Shown here: piece by piece, positions 39,220 through 63,789 of the stretch
How the letters are laid out: the number at the start of each line of letters is the position of its first letter
Position numbering within the stretch: position 1 is the first letter of the stretch
Virus record (IMG/VR): IMGVR_UViG_3300042890_003772
Span: 307-64,306 of that record
Origin: a virus
Direction: 5' to 3' (one strand)
DNA: 64,000 bases
Position numbers and translations under genes: made by a program
Notes under the pieces: model-generated
The model's input: the letters and a program-made list of their open reading frames with translations, nothing else
Databases searched by the model: none
Told to the model about the DNA's origin: nothing

Positions 39220-39227
39220 GATAAATA
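39220..39227 (+). promoter_or_regulatory. Late-promoter-like CGATAAATA upstream of the giant fibre gene
   Basis: The same TTCGATAAATA context recurs at 51878 and 57870. Confidence 0.4.
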
Positions 39228-48200: not shown

Positions 48201-49674
48201 AGTAGTATTAGGAAATAACGGTAAGATCGATGAGGCTTTATTGCCATCACTTGCCATATCTGATACATTTACGTTCTTTGACACTGGTGCTACTAAAGAC
48301 AGTATTACAATAGAAGGTAGCCCTGCGCTATATGCGCAACGTGGTGATATTGCTATCGTAGGCGGTATTGTAAATTCTACATACATATTAACAACCAACA
48401 CCCCTGGTAATATAACTGATTGGGTGCAGTTAAGAACTGGATCTGGCGTTACATCTGTTAACGGACAAACTGGTACAGTTGTGTTGGATTACAATGCAAT
48501 TGATAGTGTATCTAGTAGCTTCGTAACACCTGGATCATATAGCAGCGTAACAGTTAACGCACATGGTCGAATTACTGGTGTAAACGGTACACGTTATGCA
48601 GCACTTAATAGTTCTAACGTAATTAGTGGATCTGCAGTACCCGCATTTACTGGTGGTGATGTAATATCGGAAGGTGGAACATTAGTATTATCTTTAGCGG
48701 ATAGTGGTGTTACAGCTGGTACCTACAATATGGTTACAGTTGATGCTAAAGGTCGTATTACTGAGGGTACACTAACTACCGTATTAGATGACACCGGAGT
48801 AACCCCAGGTACATATAAATCAGTAACGGTAGATATTAAAGGTCGAGTAACTGGTGCAACTAACCCAACCACATTAGCTGGCTATGGGATTACCGATGGG
48901 TTTACACCTAATGATGCAACGTGGGACATGTTCTCAACGACAGGTGAAGCTACCACAGTTCCCGGTGGAGAGCCCGTAATTATAGGGGGTGTAAGTAGTG
49001 TTAATGGTAAGATCGGTACAGTTGCATTAGTAAAAGGTGATCTAGGGTTAGGAAATGTAAATAATACTACCGACGCAGCTAAACCAATATCTACCGCAAC
49101 ACAAGCAGCATTAGATACCAAACAAGCGGTGCTAGTAAGTGGTACTAATATTAAAACCATTAACGGTGTATCGATTATTGGAAGTGGTGATGTTACTATT
49201 AGTGGTAGCGGTGAAGTTGGAACTACTACGGGGACTGGAACAACCACCGTATTAAGTATATCACCTGTATTAGTAACACCAGATATTGGAACTCCATCAG
49301 CTGGGAACTTAACAAATTGTACAGTTGATGGTACTAACGGTGTTGGATTTATAAATGTACCACAGCTTAGCAAATCTGTGTCATACACATGCGTATTGTC
49401 AGATGCGGGCAAACACATTTATCACCCAACAAGTGATTTAAATACGCGTACATATACTATTCCATCAAATATGTTAGTACCGTATCCAATTGGTACTGCA
49501 ATACAATTTGTTAATATGTCACCAAACGCAATCAACATCGCAATCGATACTGATACGATGTATCTATCAGGACCTGGAACAACTGGTACACGTATCTTAG
49601 CATTATATGGTACAGCTACTGCACTAAAAGTAACTGATACAACTTGGATTATTTCAGGCACAGGATTAACCTGA
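39289..49674 (+). CDS. Giant tail fibre protein (3461 aa), proximal long-tail-fibre-like, with hierarchical internal repeats
   Basis: About 17 copies of Y-x-x-V-T-V-D-x-x-G-R-V, 7-8 copies of a 90-aa GTGTKITYDxKGLV unit, and 5 super-repeats of about 0.9 kb. The C-terminal 120 aa is shared with the next fibre gene. Confidence 0.7.
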   Translation: MLADGLQFLEGSVNTNLVLPALSESGRNALVNVNVGEVVFQTTGQKGIYVYNGTSWQYGLSIALDSTNPTTLFGYGITDAVRANAAITAGTGTKITYDNKGLVTGSTTLDISDIPNLPTSKLTGQITIGQLPDLGSTASTYVKVYVDATGRVVGGETTATLATLGITDAIQANTAITAGTGTKITYDSKGLVISSDVLTALDIPDIETSKLLGRITPEQLPLLGDSVAGYSSVSIDATGRVVGGSNPTTLGGYGIIDAVLANSQIVGSTGTKITYDYKGLVTSSTQLIASDIPSLDASKITTGRFSANFLPFIETLTPGTYTKVTVDSTGRVIACETPTTIDEYGITDAMRANPAITPGTGTKITYDAQGLITDAAVLAPTDIPSLPASKIVSGVLSSSLLPNSGVTAGDYYKVTADIHGRITAGASTLDISDITDLSTVLASKATPANITDAIDAVYGGVGVPGNTLKKIYDIAVASNHEITVADTNARIGTYVSSLPTNIFVVNDGDGEWALYKALATGLATNNNVIKLSDPSILNTANGYIPEDRTNKDTDPTLAANSDIKYPSQKAIKAYADTKVPKNALITAGTGAKLTYNQFGLVTGTGTLLASDIPNLDASKITSGILPTSVLPTSGANPSLSYVKVNVDTYGRVISGSTELAAGNIPSLDASKITSGKLLVSVMPNLGTPVSTYTKVRIDSTGRVVSGSNPTALADYGITDAVTANPTIAAGAGIKISYDSKGLVTGSTSLVANDIPNISAAKITSGVLNSSVLPTSGIAEGNYKSVTVDSHGRVISGTNTLTFDDVSGLTSAITNAASNASVSTAINTAISNLRADVPSQGSTLKGLYDMVLASNHELNAATVVARDALEIVSLPTNVFVLDDGDGQWALYKALYSDSQFNDYLITHPTAVASDRYVKVSDQTSLNASLGTSTEVKTNKSTNIELLDGLSASNVKYPTQLAVKTYVDNQIQTVATVVADSLTDIITTSALPEGADLALNKLVLDNDPRLSGNSAPMSHQHPISDIIDLATILDGKVNAISIPAGSGPYITYNNQGVVTASRQLTSLDLPLVPVNKIDGVLTSSQLPTNTVYTDVSGTIAVSKLPSTVLLSTNLPGDIVTTSTGGVIAQAKLPTTLVYVDGTGKIPESLIPASSQVSLIDTITVADLIELNANTTAVVGTIAIVVDTSETYVQTTNGWTKLNVPSGTVSSINGRSGVISKILPADIDGDFVNSINGRTGIIDKIHTSDLDGNFIESINGKSGVISKIEPADITGLFDDTLATVTLLAGVLPEFTGDVYSEIGTNVLTLNDVPGLDTEVFYSSIKVNSKGIVVEGSEVGNGGSIISFEQTDARYVLKSYLGLKDTAGGVAGLNSSGVLPLTVLPAFTGDLTSPAGSNVLTLKTIAGLNSTNTFSSVTVNRKGLVTGGSTQIVYNKAQADALFLSINDAGAKNTANGYVGLNADAVMYAAQLPGFVGDVTAPIGSRTLTLNTIPGVTPGASYSTVVVNSKGIVTSGTLASTAAGDIAATYVTKVSLGNRNAANGYLGLNSSAKIDSQYLPLLFLNNRFIVNTIAERNAITDAHMGDIAIVNGSVGKCYILNAATSANPDNWVELVTSNNVYQVNGKAGLVELVLSDINGTLDISKLPIRTAGDVITDPTTRELRLKDVGVNALASGATATYKSVTVNSKGLVTGGSNPTTLAGYGITDAISTRRLPLHDDGEAPFLTLGFEGTIDPTMVQSDIFTVDELPVDGVINKLYRIVGTNKSYVWDGTAFVQMTTTDASLLNVGTLPAARLPAFTGDATVPLGTSAITLANTGVTAGTYTQLTVDTKGRVISATQAPPPDAYTRSQADAKYVTQTSLGLRNTANGYVGLDSSNKIDSNLLPSISISDIFPVNTLAERDALTTTHIGDMAVVGGEVNVNYILSGVNPRVWTPMANPMGGVVAVNGSTGSITLTLDNISGSLQNSALPAFVGDITSVAGSNTLTIDKIRGITVDADFNATTLPTDGYSLTYMASSGKATWRPTGTDATNLITGILPVGRLPALTGDITTVVGHNVATVGKLNGITLDTGFTTVTPPTNGYVLTYASVGSKATWKALDASKVTVGTLPVARLPALTGTDVTADAGTGVLKLSTTGVAAGTYTSVTVNTKGRVTAGTVIPIVDAYSKLVSDNKYVAKSVLGNRNTANGYVGLNSDNKMNVVHLPAITMNIIFAVATLAQRDALTTQHIGDVAIVGGTVNRTYILSAVSPKVWIELLNPLGGVLSLNGATGVVNLTLDNIEGTLHSGALPAFTGDVTSMAGDNVLELAATGTAGTYYKVTTDVKGRVTSGATTLAVSDLPELPWSKVSVDMPTTLTGFGITDAINTSRLQAGDNGEDKLATVGSNGAIAPSLLPAFTGDDITSAVGSSVLALTETGVTAGTYTAVTVDVKGRVTSGSYAPPPDAYTKTETDGKYVLKTTLGTRNAANGWVGLDSNSKISASLLPSLAINSIYPVTTIIARDALTTTHLGDVAIVGGSVNVNYMLTSVTPTRVWTPISNPLGSVTSINGSTGVVTLDLSNITGTLRLDSLPTFTGDVSLLPETSILKVLSLNGIVLDTTHNEAVLPNNGNVLTYSSADSKAMWQSLSANHIATGTLSASVMPAFNGDAISTTGNANLTVVALNGIALDREFDPFSHPTNNHVLSYDTAGVKATWKALSASNILTGTLPAGRLPELIGDVTSNAGSNTLLLTDTGVVAGTYSSVTVDTKGRVVSGTAVPNTDAYSKIVSDNKYVAKVTLGGRNEINGFVGLNSERKIDAVYLPDITLNDIAVVSTIVERDALTTNHIGDIAIVGGSVNKTFILSSTSPRTWTELVNPLGGVTSLNGQTGNVNLTLSNINGILDTSALPMFTGDVTSLEGSNVLTLATTGAAGTYYKVTTDTKGRVTAGVAALVSSDIPPLSWSKVVYGRPTTLSGYGITNAITSDRLPVGDDGVSKIVVLGNNGKIDEALLPSLAISDTFTFFDTGATKDSITIEGSPALYAQRGDIAIVGGIVNSTYILTTNTPGNITDWVQLRTGSGVTSVNGQTGTVVLDYNAIDSVSSSFVTPGSYSSVTVNAHGRITGVNGTRYAALNSSNVISGSAVPAFTGGDVISEGGTLVLSLADSGVTAGTYNMVTVDAKGRITEGTLTTVLDDTGVTPGTYKSVTVDIKGRVTGATNPTTLAGYGITDGFTPNDATWDMFSTTGEATTVPGGEPVIIGGVSSVNGKIGTVALVKGDLGLGNVNNTTDAAKPISTATQAALDTKQAVLVSGTNIKTINGVSIIGSGDVTISGSGEVGTTTGTGTTTVLSISPVLVTPDIGTPSAGNLTNCTVDGTNGVGFINVPQLSKSVSYTCVLSDAGKHIYHPTSDLNTRTYTIPSNMLVPYPIGTAIQFVNMSPNAINIAIDTDTMYLSGPGTTGTRILALYGTATALKVTDTTWIISGTGLT

Positions 49675-49689
49675 TAAGTGATGGGCTCC

Positions 49690-49722
49690 ACAGCTATTAC
49701 TGTGGAGCCCCTTAATTATAGT
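49690..49722 (+). terminator. Stem-loop terminator after the giant fibre gene
   Basis: gggctccacag-ctatta-ctgtggagccc, with a weak T-tract after it. Confidence 0.5.
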
Positions 49723-49766
49723 GAGATCAGTTAACTAATCATTACATAAATATGGTGTTTGTAATT

Positions 49767-49774
49767 TATAAATA
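49767..49774 (+). promoter_or_regulatory. Late promoter TATAAATA
   Basis: Lies 59 nt upstream of ATG 49833. Confidence 0.45.
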
Positions 49775-49832
49775 AGCTTATGTGAATTAGTGCAGTCATT
49801 ACAATATTGATATTAAAGGGTTTAAATAGTTC

Positions 49833-50996
49833 ATGCCAACGATAACTAATAACACAACAGCCAATTACGCGATACCGCTACCAGCAAGCACCAATAGGAT
49901 TGTTGACGATATTCCTAGAATGATTAGTGCATTAACTACTATCGATACATTACTAGCTACTAAAGCTACAGTTGGTGATAATAACGTAGAGTTAGACGTT
50001 AACGGTCACTTATCAATGACTGTGATGCCGGGATTTACAGGAGATGTGGAAGCTGCACCTGGGACATCAATACTAACATTATCGGTAATATCAACACCTG
50101 GAACGTATAAATCTGTTACTGTGGACGCCACTGGTCGTGTGGTAAGCGGCACAAATCCAAACACGATAGATAGTTATGGTATCATAGACGCAGTCAAAAC
50201 AAATACACTGGGTGCTCATGGTGGTGTTGCAACATTAAATATGTATGGAGTATTAACTGCAGATCAATCACCTGCATACACCGGTGGGGAAGTTGTTTCA
50301 TCTGCAGGGTCACTTGAGTTATCGCTACTACCGAGTGGTGTATCAGTAGGTACTTATAATCAAGTAACAGTTGATGCTAAGGGCCGCGTTACAGCAGCTA
50401 CAAACACAGCAGGTCAAGCAAACGGTGTAGCTACATTAAATAGTGGAAGTTTATTATCGACTGCTCAAATGCCTGCGTTTACTGGAGATGTTACATCTAT
50501 CGCTGGTAGCTTAGCATTATCGTTAGCGGACAATGGTGTAGCTGCTGGTACGTATACAACAGTTACTGTTGATAGTAAGGGTCGTGTAACATCAGGTGCA
50601 AATACTGCATATATTCAATCAGGTGGAACTTTAACTAATTGTACAATTGATGGTACAAATCCCGTCGGATATTTAAATATTCCTCAAAATAAAAAAAATG
50701 AAGCATATGTATTAACATTGAGTGATGCAGGTAAACATATATTTCATGAATCAACGGATTTAACAGCTCGTACATATACAATACCAGCTAACAGCTCAGT
50801 ACCGTATCCAATCGGAACCGCATTAGGATTTATCAATATGTCACCAAATGTAGTTAATATTGTAATTAATACTGACACTATGTATCTTGCAGGATCAGGT
50901 TTAACTGGGCCTAGAGTGTTAGCTTTATACGGTACCGCTACTGCAATAAAGATGACAGACACTACGTGGATTATATCTGGTGTAGGGTTAACATAA
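49833..50996 (+). CDS. Tail fibre protein paralog A (387 aa)
   Basis: N-terminal anchor motif NYAIPLPASTNRIVDDIPRMISALTTID. VTVDxxGRV repeats. The C-terminal 120 aa is about 75% identical to the C-terminus of the giant fibre. Confidence 0.65.
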   Translation: MPTITNNTTANYAIPLPASTNRIVDDIPRMISALTTIDTLLATKATVGDNNVELDVNGHLSMTVMPGFTGDVEAAPGTSILTLSVISTPGTYKSVTVDATGRVVSGTNPNTIDSYGIIDAVKTNTLGAHGGVATLNMYGVLTADQSPAYTGGEVVSSAGSLELSLLPSGVSVGTYNQVTVDAKGRVTAATNTAGQANGVATLNSGSLLSTAQMPAFTGDVTSIAGSLALSLADNGVAAGTYTTVTVDSKGRVTSGANTAYIQSGGTLTNCTIDGTNPVGYLNIPQNKKNEAYVLTLSDAGKHIFHESTDLTARTYTIPANSSVPYPIGTALGFINMSPNVVNIVINTDTMYLAGSGLTGPRVLALYGTATAIKMTDTTWIISGVGLT

Positions 50997-51826
50997 TGAG
51001 TGGCTCATTTCAAATGGCAGTAAACAGCTTTACTGTTGCGACAAACGTGGGTCAAGCAATATATATAACTCCAGGTACATATCTGTGGACTGCACCATTA
51101 GGTGTAAGCAGCGTATCAGTAGTAGCCATTGGTGGAGGTGGAGCTGGTGGATACGGCAACTCGTATGGTGGCGGTGGAGCAGGTGGGAACTTACGGTACA
51201 CTAATAATATACCTGTAAGTCCTGGAACTAGCTACACTGTAGTAGTAGGTGCCGGTGGAACAACCACATTAACTAATGGTACTGCAGGTGGTAGTAGCTC
51301 ATTTGGCTTCAGTGTGGTCGCTGCAGGTGGTCGAGGTGGTGGTAGTATTGCAGGTACACCTGTAACTACTGGTAATATTGGTAGTGGTGGTAATGGTGGA
51401 ACCGGTGGTGTTGTAGATGGCGGTGGCGGTGGAGCAGGTGGTTACGCAGGAACTGGTGGTAATGGTGGAAGTAACGCTAGTGTGCAACCTACGGCTGGTA
51501 TAGGCGGCGGTGGGGGTGGCGGTGGATCTGGTAGTGGTGGAGCAGGTGGTGGTGGTGTAGGATTATACGGACAGAGTACAAATGGTGCAGCCGGTGTAAC
51601 TAAAGCCCTACTAATTGATGGTATAGTACAAGGTGGAGGTGGATCAGGTGGATCTGGTGGAGCAACTAAAACCTTTGGTATCGATCAAATAGGTGCAGTT
51701 GGTGGTTTACGAGGTGGTGGAGGTGGTGGTGGATATACAGGAGGTGCAGGTGGAGCTGGCGGTGTACGTATAGTGTGGCCCGGTACTACAAGACAATTCC
51801 CGTCAACATTTACGGTGGATGTTTAA
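50996..51826 (+). CDS. Glycine-rich protein, possibly a gp38-like adhesin
   Basis: TPGTYLWTAPLGVSSVSVVAIGGGGAGG followed by many poly-Gly motifs. Coupled by TAATG to the preceding fibre gene. Confidence 0.5.
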   Translation: MSGSFQMAVNSFTVATNVGQAIYITPGTYLWTAPLGVSSVSVVAIGGGGAGGYGNSYGGGGAGGNLRYTNNIPVSPGTSYTVVVGAGGTTTLTNGTAGGSSSFGFSVVAAGGRGGGSIAGTPVTTGNIGSGGNGGTGGVVDGGGGGAGGYAGTGGNGGSNASVQPTAGIGGGGGGGGSGSGGAGGGGVGLYGQSTNGAAGVTKALLIDGIVQGGGGSGGSGGATKTFGIDQIGAVGGLRGGGGGGGYTGGAGGAGGVRIVWPGTTRQFPSTFTVDV

Positions 51827-51924
51827 CATTATTATCAAGTTTTACACTATCATTCACGTAATTTAAATTAATAATTATACGATAAATAGTACACACAAGT
51901 AAGTTTAATAATACTAAGGTTATC

Positions 51925-53082
51925 ATGACGGTTACTGTAACAAATAATATTACACCTAATTATGCAATAGCATTACCATCCTTATCAAATAGGGTGGTTG
52001 ATGATGTTCCAAGATTAATTAGCGCTGTAAGCACTATTGATACAGTACTATCATTAAAATTAGATGCTAGCACAGTAGGTGCAATTAACGGAGTAGCATC
52101 ATTAGGTGATGATGGTAGACTATCCACCACTCAGCTCCCCGCGTTTATTGGCGATGTTACTTCTACAACAGGTTCAAATACCTTAAATCTATCCACAACC
52201 GGTGTAACTGCAGGTACATATAATTCAGTTACAGTAGACACAAAAGGTCGAGTAACAGCAGGATCCGTATCACCGGTGCTACCGGACCAATCAGGTCAAA
52301 CTGGTAAGTATTTAACCACAAACGGTGTAGACGCATCATGGAATAACGTTACAAGCGGTGTAATTCCAACTATCATACAGTATTCAAATTATACTGCAGC
52401 TGCAAATGATCTAGTTCGGTGTAACACTGCAACCGGTGCATTCAATATAATTTTTCCACTGAATCCAGTGGATGGTACAATAATTGGAGTTGTAGATGTA
52501 GGTAATACATTTGGTATTAATCATTTAACTATAGTACCGGTAGGAGGTACAATTGAAAATGATTCATCATATATATTAGATATTAATGGCACATATGCAT
52601 CATTTATATATAATACATATAATACTAATTGGCGTATATTAGAAACACCTATTGAGTTTAGCGTTAGTACAGTGCCAACTTGGAACCAAAACACTACAGG
52701 TACTGCTGCAGGGTTAAGTGTAACATTAGCAGTAGATAGTGGCGGTACAGGTGTAAAAACAATACCTACAGGTAGTGTGTTACTAGGAAATGGAGCATCC
52801 GCAGTTCAAACAGTAGCACCAGGTGCAAGTGGTAATGTATTAGTGAGTAACGGTGCAACTTGGACCAGTGGGGCAGCTCCATCATCTATACCTACACAGA
52901 CAGGTAATGATGGTAAATTTTTAACTACTGATGGTACGGTACCATCTTGGCAATCGGTGGCGGGTACACCAACATTGGCAACATTTTATTGGAATGCAGA
53001 CGAACTTATGGTAAATCATTTTGATCCATTATTAGTACCATCAATCGTAGATGGTGAATTTATTTTGGTGTATAACGGATGA
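51925..53082 (+). CDS. Tail fibre protein paralog B (385 aa)
   Basis: N-terminal NYAIALPSLSNRVVDDVPRLISAVSTID. GKYLTTNG..SW motifs and a C-proximal LVRCNT...DINGTYASFIY..NWRIL module. CGATAAATA at 51881. Confidence 0.6.
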   Translation: MTVTVTNNITPNYAIALPSLSNRVVDDVPRLISAVSTIDTVLSLKLDASTVGAINGVASLGDDGRLSTTQLPAFIGDVTSTTGSNTLNLSTTGVTAGTYNSVTVDTKGRVTAGSVSPVLPDQSGQTGKYLTTNGVDASWNNVTSGVIPTIIQYSNYTAAANDLVRCNTATGAFNIIFPLNPVDGTIIGVVDVGNTFGINHLTIVPVGGTIENDSSYILDINGTYASFIYNTYNTNWRILETPIEFSVSTVPTWNQNTTGTAAGLSVTLAVDSGGTGVKTIPTGSVLLGNGASAVQTVAPGASGNVLVSNGATWTSGAAPSSIPTQTGNDGKFLTTDGTVPSWQSVAGTPTLATFYWNADELMVNHFDPLLVPSIVDGEFILVYNG

Positions 53083-53579
53083 CAATAACAAATTTAGGGC
53101 GAATAGGTTTCGTAATACAAGGTACCTTTGTGCAAGGTACTACGTATAAACGATTAGATGTAGTTAGATACGGTAATGCTACATATACTTGCAATGTAAC
53201 TACAACTACACAAACACCTGGGGTTGGAACTGATTGGCAGCTGTACGCCTTAGATGGTGGTACAGGTGTAACACCGATAAGGATGAACTTTTACGGTAAT
53301 TTATTTGTACAAACTGGACAGGTGAGATGGTATCCTCAAAATTCTTGCAGTATAAACCAAGTATTCGCTACATTAGGTGTTTCAATTACAAGTAGCATAA
53401 TTGCAGTTATACGAAAGAATGAAACACAGATACTAACCGTGACAATTCCCGCCAATACTTATAAGTCAACTATTCAGACCGGGCTTACAATACCTATGAC
53501 TACTAGTGATTACTTAACAGTTGATATTACACAAGCTTCTGGCGGAAGCAATTTAACTATAACTATAGGATACACCTAA
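53079..53579 (+). CDS. Hypothetical fibre-associated protein
   Basis: 166 aa, coupled by ATGA. Confidence 0.45.
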   Translation: MTITNLGRIGFVIQGTFVQGTTYKRLDVVRYGNATYTCNVTTTTQTPGVGTDWQLYALDGGTGVTPIRMNFYGNLFVQTGQVRWYPQNSCSINQVFATLGVSITSSIIAVIRKNETQILTVTIPANTYKSTIQTGLTIPMTTSDYLTVDITQASGGSNLTITIGYT

Positions 53580-55597
53580 TGGCAATTACCCCTACCGCGC
53601 TTGGCACCAGGTCGATTCAAATAACCACATCTGGTACTAATAATACACAAGCTGATTTCTTTTTAAAAGTCAAAAATGCTATGATAGGTACCTCACCTGT
53701 TATGACAACAGGTTGGACGCTATTTGACGAATTTGCTACAGGTCATCAATATACTCAAGTTTTTAGAGCAATAAATGCTGACGCAGCCACCTATAAATTA
53801 ATTATATTACGGTATAATATACTAGCTAATGAAATTTATACGACTACTGCTGAATCGTGGAACGCCACTACCCATGTAGCTACAAATGAGGCGTATACAT
53901 ATTTTGAATGTGCACCAATAAGCTATATGCTTAATAATTGTGATCTTATTATTTTTATTTCACCAAGGTACTGTATTTTATTTTCTTATATTAATAATGA
54001 GCCTGGGCTTTGGGCGGGCGTTGTTGAAATGGCCCGTGAAGATTCTAATGATACTAGCGCCAACAATTATCCCTGCTGGGGGTGGACAAGTTCTACACTT
54101 CCGCTATTAGGGTGTGATGATGTAGCTCATAGACCTGGTGGTAGCAATGCTGATGATTTTTTAATTTCATTACCTAGAACAAGAACTGGACTCACAGGTG
54201 CTGCAGCTGCGAGAAACTTTAGTGCAGTATATGATGTAGTGGCGCATCCAACATTCCAAGCTACTACCAGTACATTTTTATACCACATTGGTAGCGTTAA
54301 TAATAAATTTGCTACAAATGCATGGAACTCTGCAGGTAAGCTTGCAATGCCAATAAGACCAATTTACAACTATGATCAAGTTACCATTTGTAACTATGGT
54401 ACTATATTTGGTCTCAAAATCTGCCCGACTATTGGCATTGCAATGAACAAGGTAGCCCTGACAATAGATGCCGATGGTAACTATTCGAGTGCAGGTACTT
54501 CGAATGATCATTGGGTTTTAAATCATAATTGGAAAGCTTCAACGAATGTAGCGTCATCCTGGTGGGGTAATACGAGTATTACTAAGACTGCAATAAATGT
54601 GGGAGGAGTGCAATCCAGAGCAATGGTGAGCACTGGCAGTGCTTATTATATAACATGTAGTGATAATACTTTGAGAAAAGTAGATATTGCAAGTCAAGTT
54701 GTAACTATTGTGGTCCCCGTAAACAGTATACAATATTATGGAGATCTTAGATTTGATAATGAACGATATATATACTTTGGTCATGGTTCAGGTGTCGGGC
54801 GGTTAGACACGTGGGACGATACGTATGTGTTAGTTACTTGGAACCAAAGCGCTGTTAATAGAATAGGGTTGTCTAGTACACACGTATGGATTTGCCCACA
54901 AAGCGCTAATGCGACTCAGAGTGTATCTAGATTTTTAAGATCAGCAACATTCGATAGTACTACTGTTAATGCAGGTAATGTTTCTGTAGTTATTGTAGAG
55001 AATGTACTTTATAGTGCAATTGAGTGTACTGTTGACGGTGATGCAATTCTAATTCAACAAACATCTAGTACGGCTGGTAGTGCTAGAACAGTTAAAATTA
55101 CAGCAGCAGGTGTAGTATCAGTGCTTAATCAATTTACTGCAAGTGTTGCATTTGGAGCATCCTCAATAATACCGCTTAGTGCTCAATGTTGGGTAATACA
55201 CATTCAAGTATCATCTAGTACTACACACGCCTTTACATTCAACCCTAGAACTATGACGCAAATAGGCACCACTTCTACGTCAAACATTTCACATGCAATA
55301 ACAAGTGGGCAGGGCAGAAATGGGTGGGCAAGAATTGGAGGAATGATAATCTCTATGGTAATGCCAACAGATGCTGGTTCTGCCGTGATTATGAGATTAG
55401 GAACTACAATGGTCACTAATGTTGTGACTCGTGGTACGTTAACCGCTACAACTGGACCCTCAACATATACGATGATGTGGTCAGATGGTACAAAAATAAT
55501 ATTAAGTTCTAGCTCAGGAATTATAATTTATTCTAATATTAACGGGCCGTATCCACAAACAGGTACGACTCTTGGTCAAGCTTTGATACCGTCATGA
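53579..55597 (+). CDS. Hypothetical large fibre or baseplate-associated protein (672 aa)
   Basis: Coupled by TAATG. No recognisable motifs. Confidence 0.45.
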   Translation: MAITPTALGTRSIQITTSGTNNTQADFFLKVKNAMIGTSPVMTTGWTLFDEFATGHQYTQVFRAINADAATYKLIILRYNILANEIYTTTAESWNATTHVATNEAYTYFECAPISYMLNNCDLIIFISPRYCILFSYINNEPGLWAGVVEMAREDSNDTSANNYPCWGWTSSTLPLLGCDDVAHRPGGSNADDFLISLPRTRTGLTGAAAARNFSAVYDVVAHPTFQATTSTFLYHIGSVNNKFATNAWNSAGKLAMPIRPIYNYDQVTICNYGTIFGLKICPTIGIAMNKVALTIDADGNYSSAGTSNDHWVLNHNWKASTNVASSWWGNTSITKTAINVGGVQSRAMVSTGSAYYITCSDNTLRKVDIASQVVTIVVPVNSIQYYGDLRFDNERYIYFGHGSGVGRLDTWDDTYVLVTWNQSAVNRIGLSSTHVWICPQSANATQSVSRFLRSATFDSTTVNAGNVSVVIVENVLYSAIECTVDGDAILIQQTSSTAGSARTVKITAAGVVSVLNQFTASVAFGASSIIPLSAQCWVIHIQVSSSTTHAFTFNPRTMTQIGTTSTSNISHAITSGQGRNGWARIGGMIISMVMPTDAGSAVIMRLGTTMVTNVVTRGTLTATTGPSTYTMMWSDGTKIILSSSSGIIIYSNINGPYPQTGTTLGQALIPS

Positions 55598-55782
55598 TAA
55601 CTATTACAAAATTAGCAACAGTAATGGTAGGTGCAAAAAGTATGAAACCTGCAATGTCAGGAAATACCAACAACACACCATTTAAGGTATTCACCATATT
55701 TAAAGCTGCATACAGTAATATTACAGGTAAAGGTGCAGGCACAAAAGCACCTGGCCAATTATTGCAGCGGTTTTGGAGTTAA
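55594..55782 (+). CDS. Small protein, paralog 1 with a duplicated N-terminus
   Basis: Shares an identical 61-nt, 20-aa start (MITITKLATVMVGAKSMKPA) with the next gene. Confidence 0.4.
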   Translation: MITITKLATVMVGAKSMKPAMSGNTNNTPFKVFTIFKAAYSNITGKGAGTKAPGQLLQRFWS

Positions 55783-55783
55783 T

Positions 55784-56179
55784 ATGATAACTATTACAAA
55801 ATTAGCAACAGTAATGGTAGGTGCAAAAAGTATGAAACCTGCAAATACCGGTACAAGTTTATTGAACGTATTTAAGCCGGTAACATACTTTAAAGGTATT
55901 GCTTCAATAGTAGGTAAATCAGCTACTGTTAGCAAAACACACTGTACAACTAGCAGCCTTAAGCTATTAGTTTTTAAGTCGCCAGTATATTTTAAAGCTA
56001 CAACTACACAATCAGGTAGTGGGGTGTTAATAATTAAATCTTTTGCGGTTGTATCTATACTGCGCTACATAGGATTTAAATCACCTGGGTATTTTATTGC
56101 TAGTTTTTCTAATATAGGTAATGCAAGCGGTAAACCTATCCCACAACTACCATCAACACAATCTTGGACGTCTTTATGA
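55784..56179 (+). CDS. Small protein, paralog 2 with a duplicated N-terminus
   Basis: GGAG precedes ATG 55784. The ORF track start at 55733 is rejected. Confidence 0.45.
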   Translation: MITITKLATVMVGAKSMKPANTGTSLLNVFKPVTYFKGIASIVGKSATVSKTHCTTSSLKLLVFKSPVYFKATTTQSGSGVLIIKSFAVVSILRYIGFKSPGYFIASFSNIGNASGKPIPQLPSTQSWTSL

Positions 56180-56427: not shown

Positions 56428-56439
56428 GGTATATAGTTA

Positions 56440-57849: not shown

Positions 57850-57872
57850 GCTCAACAATGATGTAGTTATTC

Positions 57873-57880
57873 GATAAATA
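57873..57880 (+). promoter_or_regulatory. Late-promoter-like CGATAAATA
   Basis: Lies 29 nt upstream of ATG 57909. Confidence 0.4.
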
Positions 57881-57908
57881 CAGCTAGACAAATAAATTTG
57901 GGTACCGC

Positions 57909-58715
57909 ATGCCTACTGTAATTGACAATAAGACCTCAAACTACGCTATACCGCTACCCGCGGTATCAAATCGATTAGTAGATGATATCGCTAGACTTTC
58001 TAGTGCATTGTTTACTATTGATCTTGTTTTAGCGTTAAAGCAGGATCAATCTACTGCAGGTGCAATTAACGGGATAGCTACATTAGATAATAACGGCCGC
58101 TTAACAGCTACGCAATTACCTGCATTATCAGGAGATGTAACACTAAACGCCGGATCCACTGCATTAACACTATCAAACACTGGGGTCTCCGCAGGGACGT
58201 ACAGCTCTGTTACTGTTGATACTAAAGGTCGTGTAACATCGGGGACAACGGTGTCTTCATCGACTCTCCAACCTACCGGAATTATAACAACAAATTATAC
58301 TGCATCTGTATACCAGCTTATCAAAGCAAGTACTGTTGATGGTATTATTACTATTATATTGCCGTCTACTCCGATAGACGGTGCAATGATATGTATTGTT
58401 GATGTTGGAAATCATTGTGGATTTAATGCAGTAACGATTCAATCCGGTGCAGGTGATACGATTAATTTTACATCATCGCAGGTATTAAATAATAATGGTA
58501 TGTGCATTACATATGTGTACATAGCCACTTCTGCCAATTGGCAGATATATAGCACCTCATTAGCAACTAGCGGTTCGACAAGTGGGTTTAATGGAGTTGA
58601 AACAAGATTAGATGGGGGAGCTCCATACATGGATGCAAGTACAACGATTATAATTGATGGCGGATCACCGATTACGATATTAGGTGTTCAAGATATTGAT
58701 GGAGGTAGTGAATAA
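57909..58715 (+). CDS. Tail fibre protein paralog C (268 aa)
   Basis: N-terminal NYAIPLPAVSNRLVDDIARLSSALFTID. A VTVDTKGRV motif and a C-terminal module. Confidence 0.6.
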   Translation: MPTVIDNKTSNYAIPLPAVSNRLVDDIARLSSALFTIDLVLALKQDQSTAGAINGIATLDNNGRLTATQLPALSGDVTLNAGSTALTLSNTGVSAGTYSSVTVDTKGRVTSGTTVSSSTLQPTGIITTNYTASVYQLIKASTVDGIITIILPSTPIDGAMICIVDVGNHCGFNAVTIQSGAGDTINFTSSQVLNNNGMCITYVYIATSANWQIYSTSLATSGSTSGFNGVETRLDGGAPYMDASTTIIIDGGSPITILGVQDIDGGSE

Positions 58716-60412
58716 TGACAACGAGAATACAATTTAGACGCGGATTAGCGTCAAATTGGGCGATAACAAATCCTACATTATATCAAGGTGAATTAGGGCT
58801 TGAGTTAGATACTAATAATATAAAGATAGGTGATGGGGTAGCTGCCTGGAACTCGTTGAATTATAGTAAATTTTTACCTGTACAAACAAATAACAGTGGT
58901 AAATATTTAACTACTAATGGTACAGATGCATCGTGGGCATCAACCACTGGAACTGGCACATTAGTTCTATCAACATCTCCAACATTAGTAACACCTATAC
59001 TAGGAACACCCACATCTGGTGATTTAACTAATTGTACTAATGCGGTCGGATATGGGTTAAAATCAGCTACAACAATAGTGAGTGTAAGTGCCGCAACAGC
59101 ACCATCTGCAGGTCAAGTATTAGTCGCCACCAATTCAACGACAGCACAATGGCAAACACCTGCAGTATCGTTACCTACTCAGACTGAAAACAGTGGTAAG
59201 TACTTAACAACAGATGGATCGAGTGCATCATGGGCATCTACCACCGGTACGGGAACATTAGTTTTAAATATATCACCAACTATTGACGCGCCAAGAATCA
59301 CTACAACTGTACTAGTTGGACCAAGTACTGCAGCAAACCTAACACGCTTTCCAAACGCTGTAGCTGTTGTATCTAGTACGGTAGCTGGTATACAACATAA
59401 TGAATCACATAATATTGGATTAATTGCGGAGGGAACTGCAAATGCTGCTGATTCTACTATTTACGGTATCGGTGTTTATGGGGTTGGTTATACTAACGCT
59501 GGAACTCGTTCTGGAGGAATAGTTGGTGAAGGACATGTATCAAACACTACAGATGGTGGTAGTGCGATAGGTGTACGGGGATACTCAAACGATACTCATG
59601 CAGGTGGTATGAATATCGGGCTATATGCTGATGCTGGTGGTAGTGCGGTTAATAATTACGCGTTATACATGAACAGTGGTGATATTACTAATATTGCCGC
59701 ACAAACATGGAATTTAGGTGGGAACCTAACATTTAGTGGAGCCTTTACAGTAGCAGTACCAACATTGAGCTTAACTAATGCATTAAGTGTTGCGAGTGGT
59801 GGGACTGGTACAAGCTCATTAGCGCTTAATAATATTTTATTAGGTAATGGTACTAACGCTGTGCAAGCGGTACCACCGGGCACATCTGGTAATATATTAA
59901 CCAGTAACGGTAACACGTGGGTTAGCGCTACACCCACTGCAACATTACCGTTGCAAACCGGTAATGCTGGTAGGTTTTTAGCTACTGATGGAACTGGAAC
60001 ATCATGGCAAGCTGTATCTAGTGGTATGGCACCAACACCAATAATGACAGCAGACTATACAGCGGTTACAAATGATTTAGTGCGTTGCAATACAACTAGT
60101 TCTTCGTTTAATGTTACATTACCTTCTGCTCCAATTGACGGAGCATTTGTAGGTATTATAGATATAAATAATACATTCAGTACAAATAATCTCACGGTGC
60201 TGCCAGGTGTAGGTAAGACGGTTGAAGGTAATAGCACATACATATTAGACATAAATGGTGCGTATATTGCGTTTATATACTCCACCACATCTACTGATTG
60301 GCATTTAATGTGTATACCACCTGCAACAGCACCTGCAACAGCTGTTACAAGTGGTGGTAGCTCTTCATCATCAGTGGGTTTTGAAGCAAATTTCATGCTA
60401 ATGGGAGCATAA
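58715..60412 (+). CDS. Tail fibre protein (565 aa)
   Basis: Repeated GKYLTTxG..SW and GNILTSNGNTWVS motifs. C-terminal LVRCNT...DINGAYIAFIY..DWHLM module. Confidence 0.6.
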   Translation: MTTRIQFRRGLASNWAITNPTLYQGELGLELDTNNIKIGDGVAAWNSLNYSKFLPVQTNNSGKYLTTNGTDASWASTTGTGTLVLSTSPTLVTPILGTPTSGDLTNCTNAVGYGLKSATTIVSVSAATAPSAGQVLVATNSTTAQWQTPAVSLPTQTENSGKYLTTDGSSASWASTTGTGTLVLNISPTIDAPRITTTVLVGPSTAANLTRFPNAVAVVSSTVAGIQHNESHNIGLIAEGTANAADSTIYGIGVYGVGYTNAGTRSGGIVGEGHVSNTTDGGSAIGVRGYSNDTHAGGMNIGLYADAGGSAVNNYALYMNSGDITNIAAQTWNLGGNLTFSGAFTVAVPTLSLTNALSVASGGTGTSSLALNNILLGNGTNAVQAVPPGTSGNILTSNGNTWVSATPTATLPLQTGNAGRFLATDGTGTSWQAVSSGMAPTPIMTADYTAVTNDLVRCNTTSSSFNVTLPSAPIDGAFVGIIDINNTFSTNNLTVLPGVGKTVEGNSTYILDINGAYIAFIYSTTSTDWHLMCIPPATAPATAVTSGGSSSSSVGFEANFMLMGA

Positions 60413-60413
60413 C

Positions 60414-60740
60414 GTGGCAACATCGTACAAAGTTTTGGGTCAATTAAATCCAACTGCAACGACTATGACTAATCTATACACTGTACCAGGTGCAACATCA
60501 GCCGTGTGTAGCACGTTATCAGTTGCTAATCTTGGACCATCTACAACTTTTAGAATCGCTGTTAGACCTGTAGGTGCAGCATTAGTTAATCAACATTATA
60601 TTGCATATGATACACCAGTAAATCAATACGACACTGTGTTTTTAACGATTGGTGTAACTCTTGCAGCAACTGATATTATTTCAGTGTACGCGGGCACAGC
60701 AACTGTAGCATTTAGCTTGTTCGGGTCGGAGATAGCATAA
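60414..60740 (+). CDS. Hypothetical small protein (GTG start)
   Basis: GGGAG lies 5 nt upstream of GTG 60414. Confidence 0.35.
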   Translation: MATSYKVLGQLNPTATTMTNLYTVPGATSAVCSTLSVANLGPSTTFRIAVRPVGAALVNQHYIAYDTPVNQYDTVFLTIGVTLAATDIISVYAGTATVAFSLFGSEIA

Positions 60741-62701
60741 TGTCTGCTATTAATATGAAAGCTAAAACAATGGCAACTAAGGCTATGAATTTAGCTGCAC
60801 AGCGAGTTAATTCAACTAGAAATCCACTACCTTACACAAGACCAACTGAATGGATGACACTTCCCACTGTACTTGCCACAGACCAAAAATTTGTTGGATT
60901 GCACATGGTTACAGTTGACAGTTGTTTTTGTGCTTTATCTGCATCTGGTGCATATACAGTTGATTGGGGTGATGGTTTAACAGAAAACTTCGCTGCTGGC
61001 GTTACGGCTTATCATCAATATAATTACAATACACTAACAACAACCAGCACATCAAATGCAACTGTAACATCGTTTGGGTATAAACAAGCAATTGTAACTG
61101 TTACTCCACAGGCTGGTAATAACTTAGCCGCATTAAATCTCAATGTAAAACATAATCAAACTGGATTACAAGCGTATAGTTCGGGATTTGTTGATATTGC
61201 TATTGCTAGTCCTTATTTGGTTGATTGTTTTATTGGAAGTTCGGATAGAGCTGGAACGCAAGCAATAACAATGCAAGACTTGGAAATAGTAAACATTGTT
61301 AAATCTGCAGTATTGGATTTTAGTTATTGCTTGCTCGGGTGTTCTTCTCTACAATCAGTTATTGCTATTGACACTTCTGCTTGTATTACTGCTACAAATA
61401 TGTTCGGTAGTTGCTCTGGCTTGCAAACAGTTCCTTTGTTTAATCTAGCAGCTTGTACTACTGCTTCTGGTATGTTCAGTAGTTGCTCTGGCTTGCAAAC
61501 AGTTCCTTTGTTTAATCTAGCAGCTTGTACTTTTACTGCAAGTATGTTCACTAATTGCTATAGCCTACAAACAGTACCTTTGTTTAATTTAAGTGCATTA
61601 ACTAATGCTTCAAATATGTTTAGTAATTGCTATAGCCTACAAACAGTACCTTTGTTTAATCTAGCAGCTTGTACTAATACTTCAAATATGTTCATTAATT
61701 GCCTTAGTCTGCAAACAGTTCCTTTGTTTAATTTAAGTGCATTAACTAATGCTACAAGTATGTTCAGTAGTTGCCGTAGCTTACAAACAGTTCCTTTGTT
61801 TAATTTAAGTGCAGTAACTAATGCTACTAGTATGTTCATTAATTGCCTTAGTCTGCAAACAGTTCCTTTGTTTAATTTAAGTGCATTAACTAATGCTACA
61901 AGTATGTTCAGTAGTTGCCGTAGCTTACAAACAGTTCCTTTGTTTAATTTAAGTGCAGTAACTAATGCTACAAGTATGTTCCAGAGTTGCTCTGGCTTGC
62001 AAACAGTACCTTTGTTTAATCTAGCAGCTTGTACTAATGCTACAAGTATGTTCAGTAGTTGCTCTGGCTTACAAACAGTTCCTTTGTTTAATTTAAGTGC
62101 AGTAACTAATGCTACAAGTATGTTCATTAATTGCCTTAGTCTGCAAACAGTTCCTTTGTTTAATTTAAGTGCATTAACTAATGCTACAAGTATGTTCAGT
62201 AGTTGCCGTAGCTTACAAACAGTTCCTTTGTTTAATTTAAGTGCATTAACTAATGCTACAAGTATGTTCACTAGTTGCCTTAGTCTGCAAACAGTTCCTT
62301 TGTTTAATTTAAGTGCAGTAACTAATGCTACAAGTATGTTCAATAGTTGCTCTGGCTTACAAACAGTTCCTTTGTTTAATTTAAGTGCAGTAACTAATGC
62401 TACAAGTATGTTCAATAATTGCCTTAGTCTGCAAACAGTTCCTTTGTTTAATCTAGCAGCTTGTACTACTACTACAAGTATGTTCAGTAGTTGCTATAGC
62501 CTAGTAAAAGCAACATGCACAGGAACTAAAGTATCAATTGATTATACCAACTGCAAACTATCAGCAACCCAACTAAATGATATATACACTAACTTAGCAT
62601 CAGGTGTAGTGAGCCAAACAATAACGGTAACCGGTAACTGGGGGTCCGCTACATCCACAACATCAATAGCCACAGCAAAAGGCTGGACTGTAACAGGGTA
62701 A
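60740..62701 (+). CDS. Repeat protein: 16 tandem 24-aa units (MFxxCxxLQTVPLFNLSAxTNATS), LRR-like/DUF285-like beta-solenoid; putative receptor-binding or decoration protein
   Basis: A 72-bp period from about 61330 to 62510, with units nearly identical at the DNA level. Confidence 0.65.
   Translation: MSAINMKAKTMATKAMNLAAQRVNSTRNPLPYTRPTEWMTLPTVLATDQKFVGLHMVTVDSCFCALSASGAYTVDWGDGLTENFAAGVTAYHQYNYNTLTTTSTSNATVTSFGYKQAIVTVTPQAGNNLAALNLNVKHNQTGLQAYSSGFVDIAIASPYLVDCFIGSSDRAGTQAITMQDLEIVNIVKSAVLDFSYCLLGCSSLQSVIAIDTSACITATNMFGSCSGLQTVPLFNLAACTTASGMFSSCSGLQTVPLFNLAACTFTASMFTNCYSLQTVPLFNLSALTNASNMFSNCYSLQTVPLFNLAACTNTSNMFINCLSLQTVPLFNLSALTNATSMFSSCRSLQTVPLFNLSAVTNATSMFINCLSLQTVPLFNLSALTNATSMFSSCRSLQTVPLFNLSAVTNATSMFQSCSGLQTVPLFNLAACTNATSMFSSCSGLQTVPLFNLSAVTNATSMFINCLSLQTVPLFNLSALTNATSMFSSCRSLQTVPLFNLSALTNATSMFTSCLSLQTVPLFNLSAVTNATSMFNSCSGLQTVPLFNLSAVTNATSMFNNCLSLQTVPLFNLAACTTTTSMFSSCYSLVKATCTGTKVSIDYTNCKLSATQLNDIYTNLASGVVSQTITVTGNWGSATSTTSIATAKGWTVTG
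61330..62510 (+). repeat. Tandem array of 72-bp near-identical repeats (16 copies) inside the CDS
   Basis: Direct reading: ...atgttcagtagttgc(c/t)(c/g)t(a/g)gc(t/c)t(a/g)caaacagttcctttgtttaatttaagtgca(g/t)taactaatgctacaagt... reiterated. Confidence 0.9.
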
Positions 62702-62705
62702 TGAT

Positions 62706-62915
62706 ATGAGTTTTTTTAGAATAGATAATGATAATTTACATGAGGCTCCTAATTTTGTGTACGCACCTGATTATGAATTATCCATAGATGAAAAGGATAC
62801 TTATACATATCCAACTGAAGGTGGCTGGTATTGGTTTGATACTATAGCAGAAGCAAGAGAGTTTTTTAATATACCAGAGCCCATCATTGATGAAGGATTA
62901 GTAAATGACGAATAG
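62706..62915 (+). CDS. Hypothetical small acidic protein
   Basis: 69-aa ORF. Confidence 0.35.
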   Translation: MSFFRIDNDNLHEAPNFVYAPDYELSIDEKDTYTYPTEGGWYWFDTIAEAREFFNIPEPIIDEGLVNDE

Positions 62916-63789
62916 ATTATCATCGGCTCTACAAGTTGTTACACCGGGAACAACTGGTAATGTATTAACTAGTAATGGATCAACATGGGTAAGTGCAACC
63001 CCTGCTGTATCACTACCAACTCAAACAAGCAATACAGGTAAATACTTAACAACTGATGGTACAGTTGCAGCATGGGCGACTATATCGAGTGGATTGACAT
63101 CAACTCCGGTACAAACATCAGCTTATACAGCTGCAGTATATGAGTTAGTACGTACCAATACAACATCTGGGTCATTTACAGTTACATTACCTGCATCACC
63201 AATTGATGGTGCTCAAATTGGTGTTATCGATATAGCTAAAACATTTGGATCGTATCCATTAACATTAGCGCCAGGGGTTGGTGCAACTATTGAAGGTGAT
63301 AGTACTGCAATGTTATTAGATATTAATGGTGCTTATGTTGCGTTTGTATATACGGCATCCCTAACAAATTGGCGGTTATTATCTATACCATTTGGAGGTA
63401 ATGGTGTGATTAGTAACGGTGGCTTAGTACCAACTACTGTTAAAATTGCAAATTATTCTACATCCAGTAATGAGTTAGTTAGATGTAATACATCAGGTGG
63501 AGCGTTTAGCGTGACTATGCCTGCAGCTCCATTAGATGGTGCAATCATTGGATTTGTTGATATAAATAACACATTTGCAACCAACAATTTAACAATCTTA
63601 CCAGCTGGTAAAACAATTGAGGGAGACGCAACCTCATATGTACTAGATATAAGTGGAGTGTATGTGTCGTTTATATATACATCAACAACAGGTAATTGGC
63701 GGTTATTAGAAACGCCAACAATATCGTTATCATCATCTACCACATCGATTGGTAAATCGATAGCAATGTCCATCGCCTTTGGGGGGTAA
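62905..63789 (+). CDS. Tail fibre protein with two copies of the C-terminal LVRxNT...NWRLL module
   Basis: GNVLTSNGSTWVSATPAVSLPTQTSNTGKYLTTDG motif. The module repeats at about 63143-63386 and 63473-63713. Confidence 0.6.
   Translation: MTNRLSSALQVVTPGTTGNVLTSNGSTWVSATPAVSLPTQTSNTGKYLTTDGTVAAWATISSGLTSTPVQTSAYTAAVYELVRTNTTSGSFTVTLPASPIDGAQIGVIDIAKTFGSYPLTLAPGVGATIEGDSTAMLLDINGAYVAFVYTASLTNWRLLSIPFGGNGVISNGGLVPTTVKIANYSTSSNELVRCNTSGGAFSVTMPAAPLDGAIIGFVDINNTFATNNLTILPAGKTIEGDATSYVLDISGVYVSFIYTSTTGNWRLLETPTISLSSSTTSIGKSIAMSIAFGG

Follow-up and report, generated by a model that had tools for sequence, protein, structure and literature searches.

What do the protein blocks that recur from gene to gene in a phage fibre cluster do, and which parts of the fibres meet the host? 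The 64,000-nt stretch of virus DNA analysed here (the window) raises both questions. By its sequence it reads as DNA of an uncultured jumbo myovirus in the T4 superfamily and includes that phage's tail-fibre genes for host adsorption, a cluster put together from a few reusable building blocks. The capsid protein, 62% identical to that of XacN1, is closest to the XacN1/RaK2-like lineage, and a gp5-like hub, a topoisomerase II and a gp63-like RNA ligase are encoded upstream of the fibre cluster. Host-range loci of this type are already known. Two of the blocks, however, have no previous description; they include a widespread fibre-tip domain, apparently the holder of a separately encoded, exchangeable adhesin. 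We put at about 60% the probability of the explanation that fits the whole best: a fibre cluster made from a module kit, in which the XD1 module is the swap junction and exchangeable proteins of the g50996 type plug into the tip.

The four modules that the original prediction listed as shared are real. All-against-all BLASTP with composition-based statistics aligned every one of them, with E values from 1e-14 to 1e-65. The N-terminal anchor common to g49833, g51925 and g57909 shows 61 to 63% identity over about 46 aa, and the C-terminal block of g39289 recurs in g49833 (48% identity over 310 aa, E 5e-65; 86/125 = 69% between the two tip copies that form the last 125 aa). The beta-hairpin motifs GN(V/I)LTSNG..W and GK(Y/F)LTT(D/N)G...W were found in g51925, g58715 and g62905, and an HMM placed the five copies of the remaining module at the genes named, although its length is about 97 aa and not 80. 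T, G, S and N abound in the cluster proteins, as would be expected if the modules were a compositional artefact of Thr/Gly/Asn-rich fibre sequence. That explanation is refuted by alignments that persist under composition correction and by HMM matches with defined boundaries (i-E 1e-29 to 1e-71); moreover, folds were recovered independently and the same blocks are kept in hundreds of other contigs, leaving it a negligible probability. Since module copies within the genome share only 60 to 84% identity at the DNA level, the duplications that produced them are old. A six-frame HMM scan of the 64-kb window revealed no further anchor, XD1 or tip copies.

The cluster, with all features on the plus strand, would form four units, each with a late-promoter-like motif at its head, and three of them with the anchor in common. 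Unit 1 would be the giant fibre gene g39289 (39289..49674; 3461 aa), 62 nt downstream of the motif CGATAAATA at 39219..39227. Its product has its own N-terminus, many shaft units (15 TVDxKGRV-type and 9 YGITDA-type motifs by regular expression) and, at the end, tip copy 1 (aa 3337-3461, 49297..49671; tip HMM i-E 1e-66); the homologue in the relative L010 has 3479 aa. A terminator-like hairpin with an 11-bp stem and 8 GC pairs lies just 3' of the gene (49683..49710). Unit 2 would comprise g49833 (49833..50996; 387 aa), preceded by a T4-late-type TATAAATA motif (49767..49774), and g50996 (50996..51826), which encodes a Gly-rich protein of 276 aa. The g49833 product, of which an identical copy carries the JGI label 'phage-related tail fiber protein', consists of the N-anchor (aa 1-46), three shaft units and tip copy 2 (aa 263-387, nt 50619-50993). 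For the gene after it, the open reading frame list of the window gives a start at 50966, but gene calls on identical contigs make the ATG at 50996, overlapping the g49833 stop, the likelier one.

Unit 3 would begin with a CGATAAATA motif (51880..51888) and g51925 (51925..53082; 385 aa), composed of N-anchor, shaft unit, hairpin, XD1 (aa 149-245, nt 52369-52659) and hairpin shaft. It would continue with g53079 and g53579 (53079..55597; 166 and 672 aa) and possibly with g56440 (56440..57849; 469 aa), a fibre in which the hairpin G..GQ.L...G.P.W occurs as four repeats. Unit 4, headed by another CGATAAATA motif (57872..57880), would start with g57909 (57909..58715; 268 aa; N-anchor, shaft unit and XD1 at aa 123-220, nt 58275-58568) and g58715 (58715..60412; 565 aa; Mtd_N N-terminal domain, hairpins, central domain and XD1 at aa 441-538, nt 60035-60328). 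These would be followed by g60414 and g60740 (60414..62701; 108 and 653 aa), by g62905 (62905..63789; 294 aa), in which two hairpin motifs precede two XD1 copies (aa 67-165 and 177-274, nt 63103-63399 and 63433-63726), and by a gene that the window end truncates, leaving its 5' part (63793..64000). There are four copies of CGATAAATA in the window versus 1.07 expected, three of which head the fibre genes g39289, g51925 and g57909, and TATAAATA is not enriched across the window. The promoter-like motif is short.

The anchor always lies within residues 1-55, in proteins that are unrelated in the rest of their sequence, and among the three genes that carry it here it aligns, together with the first shaft unit, at E = 1e-24 to 3e-57. 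Its profile matched 88 of 1.84 billion cluster-representative proteins at E <= 0.001, always beginning within the first 14 residues except in two weak repeat matches. These proteins range from 72 to 1803 aa, and the bodies of the ten inspected are unrelated. In a low-confidence AlphaFold2 model, residues 19-46 form a helix, so that the anchor is probably a peptide followed by a helix. It would head the proximal subunit of three different fibres and presumably plug them into one kind of socket, on a baseplate or hub protein. The shaft would be built of TVDxKGRV/YGITDA repeat units and G..L...G..W beta-hairpins; the structure model of g49833 is poor (pLDDT 53).

XD1 is the module for which both fold and exchange were observed. 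The HMM finds exactly five copies in the window, of about 97 aa each (i-E 1e-29 to 5e-46), and the profile matches residues 100-212 of CBA120 TSP4-N (E 6e-13) and residues 98-356 of T4 gp34 (E 6.5e-5), with a pLDDT of 86 for the AlphaFold2 model. It is a beta-sandwich of the type of T4 gp9, the gp34 N-terminus and CBA120 TSP4, and would serve as a trimer node. In T4 gp9, gp10, the gp34 N-terminus and TSP4-N, XD1 is N-terminal and proximal, whereas in the window it also stands in the middle or at the C-terminus of short fibre proteins; these proteins reach no Pfam family in the comparison, PF07880 included. Direct evidence of module exchange comes from three close metagenomic relatives. L010 and L012 align collinearly with the window (77 to 83% nucleotide identity) as far as 52658 and 52649, respectively, where collinearity ends together with the XD1 of g51925, and different genes lie beyond; in L012 the alignment picks up again at 62939, a 10.3-kb indel. 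In L098 the break falls within the g58715 XD1, and what follows is a copy of the first g62905 XD1, 99% identical over 287 nt against a background of 86%. The product is a fused gene of 864 aa, and the g60414/g60740 cassette of the window sits between the two parts joined in it. Module trees are likewise incongruent, g51925 and g57909 being 63% identical in the anchor and 39% in XD1. Since the XD1 coding sequence is a recombination site in relatives, it acts as a junction for swaps of downstream cassettes. T-even mosaic fibre genes likewise have conserved blocks that flank variable cassettes and coincide with breakpoints between relatives, and the glycine-rich motifs of gp37/gp38 are their conserved recombination linkers (PMC12032242). 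Here, unlike those linkers, the junction is an entire folded domain (about 290 nt) that recurs in several of the clustered genes, so recombination can remove or join entire genes, the indel and the fusion above being examples.

The 125-aa tip has no match in Pfam or PDB but is widespread, with 568 relatives in IMG/VR and 1816 metagenomic homologues of about 70% identity that end proteins of 212 to 672 aa. In 79/79 evaluable viral contigs, its gene adjoins one whose product starts MSGALQAVFQNQRSF; the second gene begins at -1 to +4 nt, and in its product the peptide MSG(A/I)(L/Q)QAVFQNQRSF precedes a body that varies. The pair in the window is g49833 and g50996, the latter with the N-terminus MSGSFQMAVNSF and a Gly_rich_2 match (Pfam E 2.5e-8). 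Of the 69 downstream proteins scanned, 32 have a Gly_rich_2 body, 25 an Lcl_C body and 4 an fn3 body. Lcl_C (formerly DUF1566) has a C-type-lectin fold and is among the diversified target proteins of DGR surveys, a class described there as ligand-binding. Divergence of the tip follows that of the N-peptide (Mantel r 0.64, p <= 0.0005), in contrast to body type (r 0.03). The tip/N-peptide correlation may stem from tight physical linkage of adjacent coding segments rather than from binding.

By analogy with gp37-gp38 of T2 and S16, we infer a socket function for the tip: it would seat the conserved 15-aa N-terminal peptide of an exchangeable distal protein, here the putative adhesin g50996. No separate partner gene accompanies g39289, so the product of the single gene g50996 would be carried by the 3461-aa fibre and the 387-aa fibre alike. 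In T2, S16 and PP01, gp38 attaches by a conserved N-terminal segment and binds the receptor by a variable, glycine-rich body (PMC12032242), and its gene directly follows the fibre gene, as g50996 follows g49833; the constant peptide and variable body of the 79 loci resemble this design. In contrast to gp37-gp38, the tip is compact, the putative attachment element has only about 15 aa, the bodies come from at least three unrelated families, and the system is found in jumbo myoviruses as well as in 37-55-kb phage contigs. No sequence similarity of g50996 itself to gp38, or to any solved structure, was detected.

The same gene pair could be read the other way, with the tip as the receptor-binding domain, conserved because it meets a conserved surface structure, and the downstream gene as a chaperone of the Tfa or T4 gp38 kind that only folds it. 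Tfa genes typically sit directly 3' of the fibre gene, as g50996 does, g50996 weakly matches phrog_863, 'tail fiber assembly' (E 2e-7), and a low-confidence tip model matches the XD1/StcE/CpaA fold, which binds glycans in the StcE and CpaA proteases. However, a chaperone for a near-invariant client has no obvious need of interchangeable bodies behind a constant N-peptide; body type is uncoupled from tip sequence, Lcl_C, one of the body families, is known from DGR-diversified targets described as ligand-binding, and a tip shared at about 70% identity by a 3461-aa jumbo fibre and 37-55-kb contigs is more easily understood as a structural interface than as a host-specific binder. We therefore regard this reading as rather unlikely. 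The occurrence of the same tip in g39289, in g49833 and in the fibre genes of those smaller contigs, which lie among structural and lysis genes (adaptor, endolysin), also bears on whether some proteins, notably g39289, are head or neck fibres ('hairs' or whiskers) with generic fibre parts as modules. g39289 does lie three small genes 3' of the major capsid gene, but it shares its tip with these fibres and most annotated homologues are tail fibres, which makes a head or neck location very unlikely.

A branched complex of the Ackermannviridae, G7C or RaK2 type, with fibres hanging from one another by N-anchor plugs in XD1 sockets, is an unlikely arrangement. It draws on the sequence and fold homology to the N-terminal assembly region of TSP4, on three proteins with the same type of N-terminal module alongside five XD1 modules, and on fibres of RaK2 and related jumbo phages, described as branched (PMC10253068). 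Ackermannviridae TSP1-4, G7C gp63.1/gp66 and Alcyoneusvirus RaK2 also share with this locus a clustering of many fibre or spike genes, conserved N-terminal assembly modules, swappable distal parts and documented exchange between relatives (PMC8825819). However, partners are bound in TSP4 by XD2 and XD3, as they are by these jellyrolls in T4 gp10, and XD1 is called a spacer, whose binding to a trimeric partner on the threefold axis the authors argue to be impossible (PMC8825819); the XD1 modules here can thus not be assumed to be docking sites. XD2/XD3-like jellyrolls, the defining docking domains of such complexes, were looked for in the window proteins and not found, nor were depolymerase or tailspike beta-helix domains detected there. 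The anchor belongs to a different family without annotated relatives, and there is no sign of anchor/XD1 co-variation.

Under the favoured module-kit reading, the recurring blocks have the look of parts for assembly (for attachment, shaft, node and docking) rather than of receptor binders. The original prediction of a host-range mosaic thus stands as far as a mosaic fibre locus with modules exchanged among relatives is concerned, but not for the recurring modules as determinants of specificity; several alternative fibres on one virion are plausible, given four units with promoter-like motifs at their heads, three of them with one anchor. Host contact is probably made by the variable parts, that is, by unshared segments and separately encoded proteins. 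Probable candidates are the Gly-rich g50996, g53079/g53579, the tip of g56440, the central domain of g58715, the g60740 repeats and the 129-aa proteins. g53079 and g53579 are probably distal components; the pair is kept 3' of anchor proteins in relatives, with 36 to 38% identity and the same gene order in L002 and L100, and g53079 has weak matches to CBM_5_12 and tail-fibre PHROGs. g56440 ends in a Peptidase_S74 intramolecular chaperone domain (PF13884, E 1.4e-7) and matches phrog_4636, tail spike; the Mtd_N domain of g58715 is N-terminal (Pfam E 6.6e-13). g60740 contains 15 tandem 24-aa DUF285 repeats (Pfam E 1e-45), seen in the DNA as 72-nt tandem repeats. The cut gene at 63793 is a homologue of the 129-aa protein (MANPNII...), which in relatives is encoded 3' of fibre genes ending in XD1-XD1, and is 61 to 71% identical to L012_4153, L002_11144, L010_13227 and L010_17449. 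The homologue of g57909 in L098 is 94% identical.

We found that every block named in the original prediction, which had read the fibre genes as a mosaic of shuffled modules, is alignable in a composition-corrected all-against-all BLASTP comparison, with block boundaries placed by HMMs built from homologues. A common N-terminal anchor is present in three copies of about 46 aa (61-63% identical), and a 125-aa C-terminal block, the tip, ends both the 3461-aa giant fibre g39289 (genes are named by their start coordinates) and the 387-aa fibre g49833, the two copies being 69% identical to each other. The recurring module, called XD1 here, has five copies of about 97 aa by HMM, one each in g51925, g57909, and g58715 and two in g62905, and the short motifs GNVLTSNG..W and GKYLTTDG...W sit where they had been placed. 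No additional block copies were found elsewhere in the 64-kb window. DNA identity between copies is only 60-84%, so paralogy within this genome is old, and recent duplication was rejected as its source. Of the proposed mosaic host-range locus, the mosaic and exchangeable character stands, on a comparison with relatives that is new to that reading; the shared modules appear to form a constant assembly kit and not to determine specificity, and several fibres may coexist on one virion. Since mosaic fibre loci and multi-fibre virions are already well known, the general idea is not new, and the kind of system is known.

The XD1 module can be tied to a solved structure. A profile of g62905 homologues matches crystal structures of the CBA120 TSP4 N-terminal region (7rfv/7rej, residues 100-212, E = 6e-13), mainly on the XD1 stretch, as well as the N-terminal part of T4 gp34 (9x3r, residues 98-356, E = 6.5e-5). 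The similarity to the XD1 region of the solved member is significant. AlphaFold modelled g62905 well (pLDDT 86), and both the fold and the structural neighbours (gp9, CpaA, and StcE) are the same, in line with the neighbour list published for the TSP4 XD1 domain (PMC8825819). In TSP4 and T4 gp10, partners are bound by XD2 and XD3, and XD1 is a spacer (PMC8825819); for this reason we speak of a trimer node and make no claim of a socket. The general searches run here recognised no separate domain resembling XD2 or XD3, the beta-jellyrolls that take up the N-termini of partner fibres in branched receptor-binding complexes of the CBA120 / G7C type. Pfam at E ≤ 0.01 gave nothing for g51925, g57909, or g62905 and Mtd_N alone for g58715, with PF07880 unmatched; one distant homologue, P0093, does carry PF07880, the T4 gp9/10-like family. 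Each of the two short motifs is a beta-hairpin in the g62905 model (strands 20-23/28-31 and 46-50/55-59), and as modelled they are shaft elements.

Comparing three close relatives (L010, L012, and L098) with the window at the protein and DNA levels, we saw module exchange in all of them, as had been predicted. Collinearity with the window, at 77-83% nucleotide identity, extends to window position 52658 for L010 and 52649 for L012, stopping where the XD1 of g51925 ends, at 52659. Past the breakpoint the gene content of L010 differs, with a second XD1 and then a 131-aa protein, a protein with fn3/Laminin_G, and a 770-aa fibre; L012 resumes only at 62939, lacking 10.3 kb of the window. L098 is collinear over 56698-60279 at 86% and breaks inside the XD1 of g58715; its next 287 nt match the first XD1 of g62905 at 99% identity, so that a single 864-aa gene takes the place of g58715, g60414, g60740, and g62905. 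Module histories within the window disagree as well: g51925 and g57909 share 63% identity in the anchor and first shaft unit and 39% in XD1, and when the XD1 of g51925 is compared with the copies in g58715 and g62905, neither of which has the anchor, identity is 49-55%. Breakpoints at XD1 together with discordant module histories indicate that XD1 serves as a structural unit and also as the site of cassette swapping. This is direct comparative evidence that relatives recombined at a folded domain repeated over several genes, leaving a fused gene in one case and 10 kb gained or lost in another.

Several other observations touch these genes. The start of g62905 (62905) falls in the middle of a shaft motif (..GNG..A.Q.V.PG..GN.L.SNG) that is internal in g58715 and g51925, and homologues in L012 (383 aa) and L098 (the fused 864-aa protein) have extra N-terminal parts; g62905 may be the 3' part of a once longer gene that has gained a start. 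Within g60740 (61315-62622), a 24-aa DUF285 repeat with the pattern LQTVPLFNLSA.TNATSMF..C.S, 72 nt long in the DNA, is found in tandem at least 15 times, the copies being 62-84% identical among themselves, and the product of g60740 is probably a leucine-rich-repeat-like surface binder; the cassette is missing where L098 has its fused gene. An 872-aa metagenomic protein, P0246, joins the N-terminal anchor, shaft units, XD1, and a central domain (AGIQHNESHNIGLIAEG...) near-identical to that of g58715, beyond which its C-terminus differs, a module combination not found in the window.

Sequence searches with the tip gave no Pfam or PDB match. It nevertheless recurs behind N-terminal parts of any length in 1816 database proteins, whose final ~125 aa are typically about 70% identical to it, and a scan of IMG/VR with the tip alignment gave 568 relatives. 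Among the best 80 of these 568 loci, 79 had enough downstream sequence for gene-pair analysis, and in all 79 the next gene starts -1 to +4 nt from the stop of the tip gene and its product begins M-S-G-[AI]-[LQ]-Q-A-V-F-Q-N-Q-R-S-F. Past these ~15 residues, here the N-peptide, the downstream proteins split into unrelated bodies: of 69 scanned, 32 have Gly_rich_2, 25 Lcl_C (formerly DUF1566), and 4 fn3, the others being without assignment. DUF1566 turns up in DGR surveys among diversified target proteins, and it is these proteins that the surveys describe as ligand-binding. In this phage, the start of g50996, encoding a 276-aa Gly-rich protein, overlaps the stop of g49833, and its product begins MSGSFQMAVNSF... 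and continues with a Gly_rich_2 body. The giant fibre g39289 carries the tip and is followed by no partner gene, as is also the case in L010. In the 50-52 kb bin, which includes 50966-51826, GC content is 0.43, up from ~0.35-0.39 in the surrounding sequence; the GGN codons for Gly in the Gly-rich gene account for this, not a foreign insertion.

From these sequences we propose that the tip would act as a socket and the N-peptide as its plug, that host binding would fall to the downstream body, as the part that can be exchanged, and that both g39289 and g49833 would use g50996. We give a probability of roughly 0.4 to the reading that the 125-aa tip and 15-aa MSGALQAVFQNQRSF peptide make up a plug-and-socket, widespread but undescribed, that mounts interchangeable, separately encoded adhesins (Gly-rich, Lcl_C-type, and fn3), with one adhesin gene serving two fibres of very different lengths here. 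Divergence of the tip goes with that of the N-peptide (Mantel r = 0.64, p ≤ 0.0005), and body type is uncorrelated with either the tip (r = 0.03) or the N-peptide (r = 0.05); the tip-N-peptide correlation could be explained by adjacency alone. A weak match to phrog_863 leaves room for another role of g50996, that of a chaperone. The closest known analogue of the tip and g50996 is gp37-gp38 of T2/S16-type phages (PMC12032242), in which the adhesin gene likewise lies directly 3' of the distal fibre gene, as g50996 does behind g49833, and a conserved N-terminal attachment segment precedes a variable body. A phmmer search of g50996 against all PDB gave only spurious low-complexity matches and no homology to gp38, a polyglycine-II sandwich adhesin, and the resemblance is therefore one of functional analogy only. 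The C-terminal intramolecular chaperone (Peptidase_S74) of endosialidase-type fibres is found in g56440 only (residues 373-427 match PF13884, E = 1.4e-7, 32.1 bits versus a cut-off of 22).

Users of the plug-and-socket arrangement would range from a jumbo myovirus whose fibre is 3461 aa long to metagenomic phage contigs of 37-55 kb. In three such contigs (L014, L015, and L017), a tip gene and its MSG-peptide partner sit amid structural and lysis genes such as those for an SU10-type adaptor and endolysins, and close by, directly before the pair or two genes after it, is a gene for a DUF5856 protein; the same tip therefore serves phages very unlike the jumbo phage. The tip is a very common yet unannotated block, paired in 79/79 loci with a downstream gene of constant N-peptide and swappable, putatively ligand-binding body. 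If the pairing reflects docking, it offers a simple rule to locate the real specificity determinant in many uncultured phages and a minimal tag for host-range engineering: the body of the downstream gene could reveal host specificity for hundreds of uncultured phages, and the 15-aa peptide alone could suffice for adhesin transplant.

The N-terminal anchor, an unannotated family heading three fibres of this phage, has no meaningful Pfam or PDB match by sequence. Its profile gave 88 matches at E ≤ 0.001 among 1.84 billion representative proteins, beginning within the first 14 residues except in two weak repeat hits. The proteins that bear it range from 72 to 1803 aa, and the ten inspected have unrelated bodies, a pattern characteristic of modules for N-terminal attachment. 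The anchor model is poor overall, with a helix predicted at residues 19-46. Both the anchor family and the tip/N-peptide pairing appear undescribed and worth following up.

The window is part of the genome of an uncultured jumbo myovirus in the T4 superfamily, of the XacN1 / RaK2-like lineage. Its T4-type capsid protein (36138-37499) is nearest that lineage, with 62% identity to Xanthomonas phage XacN1 and ~46% to GAP32/CBB-type (RaK2-like) phages, and T4-like core genes upstream of the fibre cluster encode a gp5-like hub, both topoisomerase II subunits, and a gp63-like RNA ligase. The 15-kb fibre cluster has no nucleotide match among GenBank phages by megablast, and XacN1, the nearest cultured relative by capsid, has no comparable cluster beside its capsid gene; tail-fibre homologues are reportedly absent from it (PMC5852040). 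No tRNAs were found in the window. Several metagenomes hold contigs identical or near-identical to it.

From 39289 to the window end, all sizeable genes lie on the + strand, and we read the cluster as four fibre units, three with proximal subunits sharing one anchor. CGATAAATA has 4 copies in the window versus 1.07 expected, an enrichment that rests on only these 4 sites, and three of them lie 29-62 nt upstream of g39289, g51925, and g57909. TATAAATA is present upstream of g49833; as a general late promoter it was rejected, not being enriched (11 found versus 15.5 expected in the window), and only its pre-gene placement is suggestive. A strong terminator-like hairpin follows g39289. Gene order behind anchor proteins is kept in relatives: L100 has an anchor protein, then a g53079-type and a g53579-type protein, and in L098 the homologues of g57909 and g58715 follow each other with overlapping stop and start. 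A 129-aa protein comes after fibre genes ending in XD1-XD1. The fourth CGATAAATA copy (21899-21907) is 42 nt upstream of a + strand ORF (21941-23116) without a PHROG match and could point to a further late gene, away from the fibre cluster.

Small ORFs also occur between the fibre genes. Just after g53579, an exact 61-nt direct repeat (55594-55654 and 55784-55844, 190 nt apart) opens two basic, K/S/T-rich ORFs of 62 and 131 aa that have the same first 20 residues (MITITKLATVMVGAKSMKPA) and diverge beyond them (103/190 nt identical); in relatives, other small basic ORFs take this place (181 aa in L002 and 141 aa in L100). The 203-nt "gap" before g62905 is occupied by an ORF of ~66 aa (62706-62904, MSFFRIDNDNLHEAPNFVYAPDYELS...GGWYWFD...) that resembles, by eye, 137-147-aa proteins in the fibre clusters of relatives (L002_12826, L003_12750, and L098_4039).
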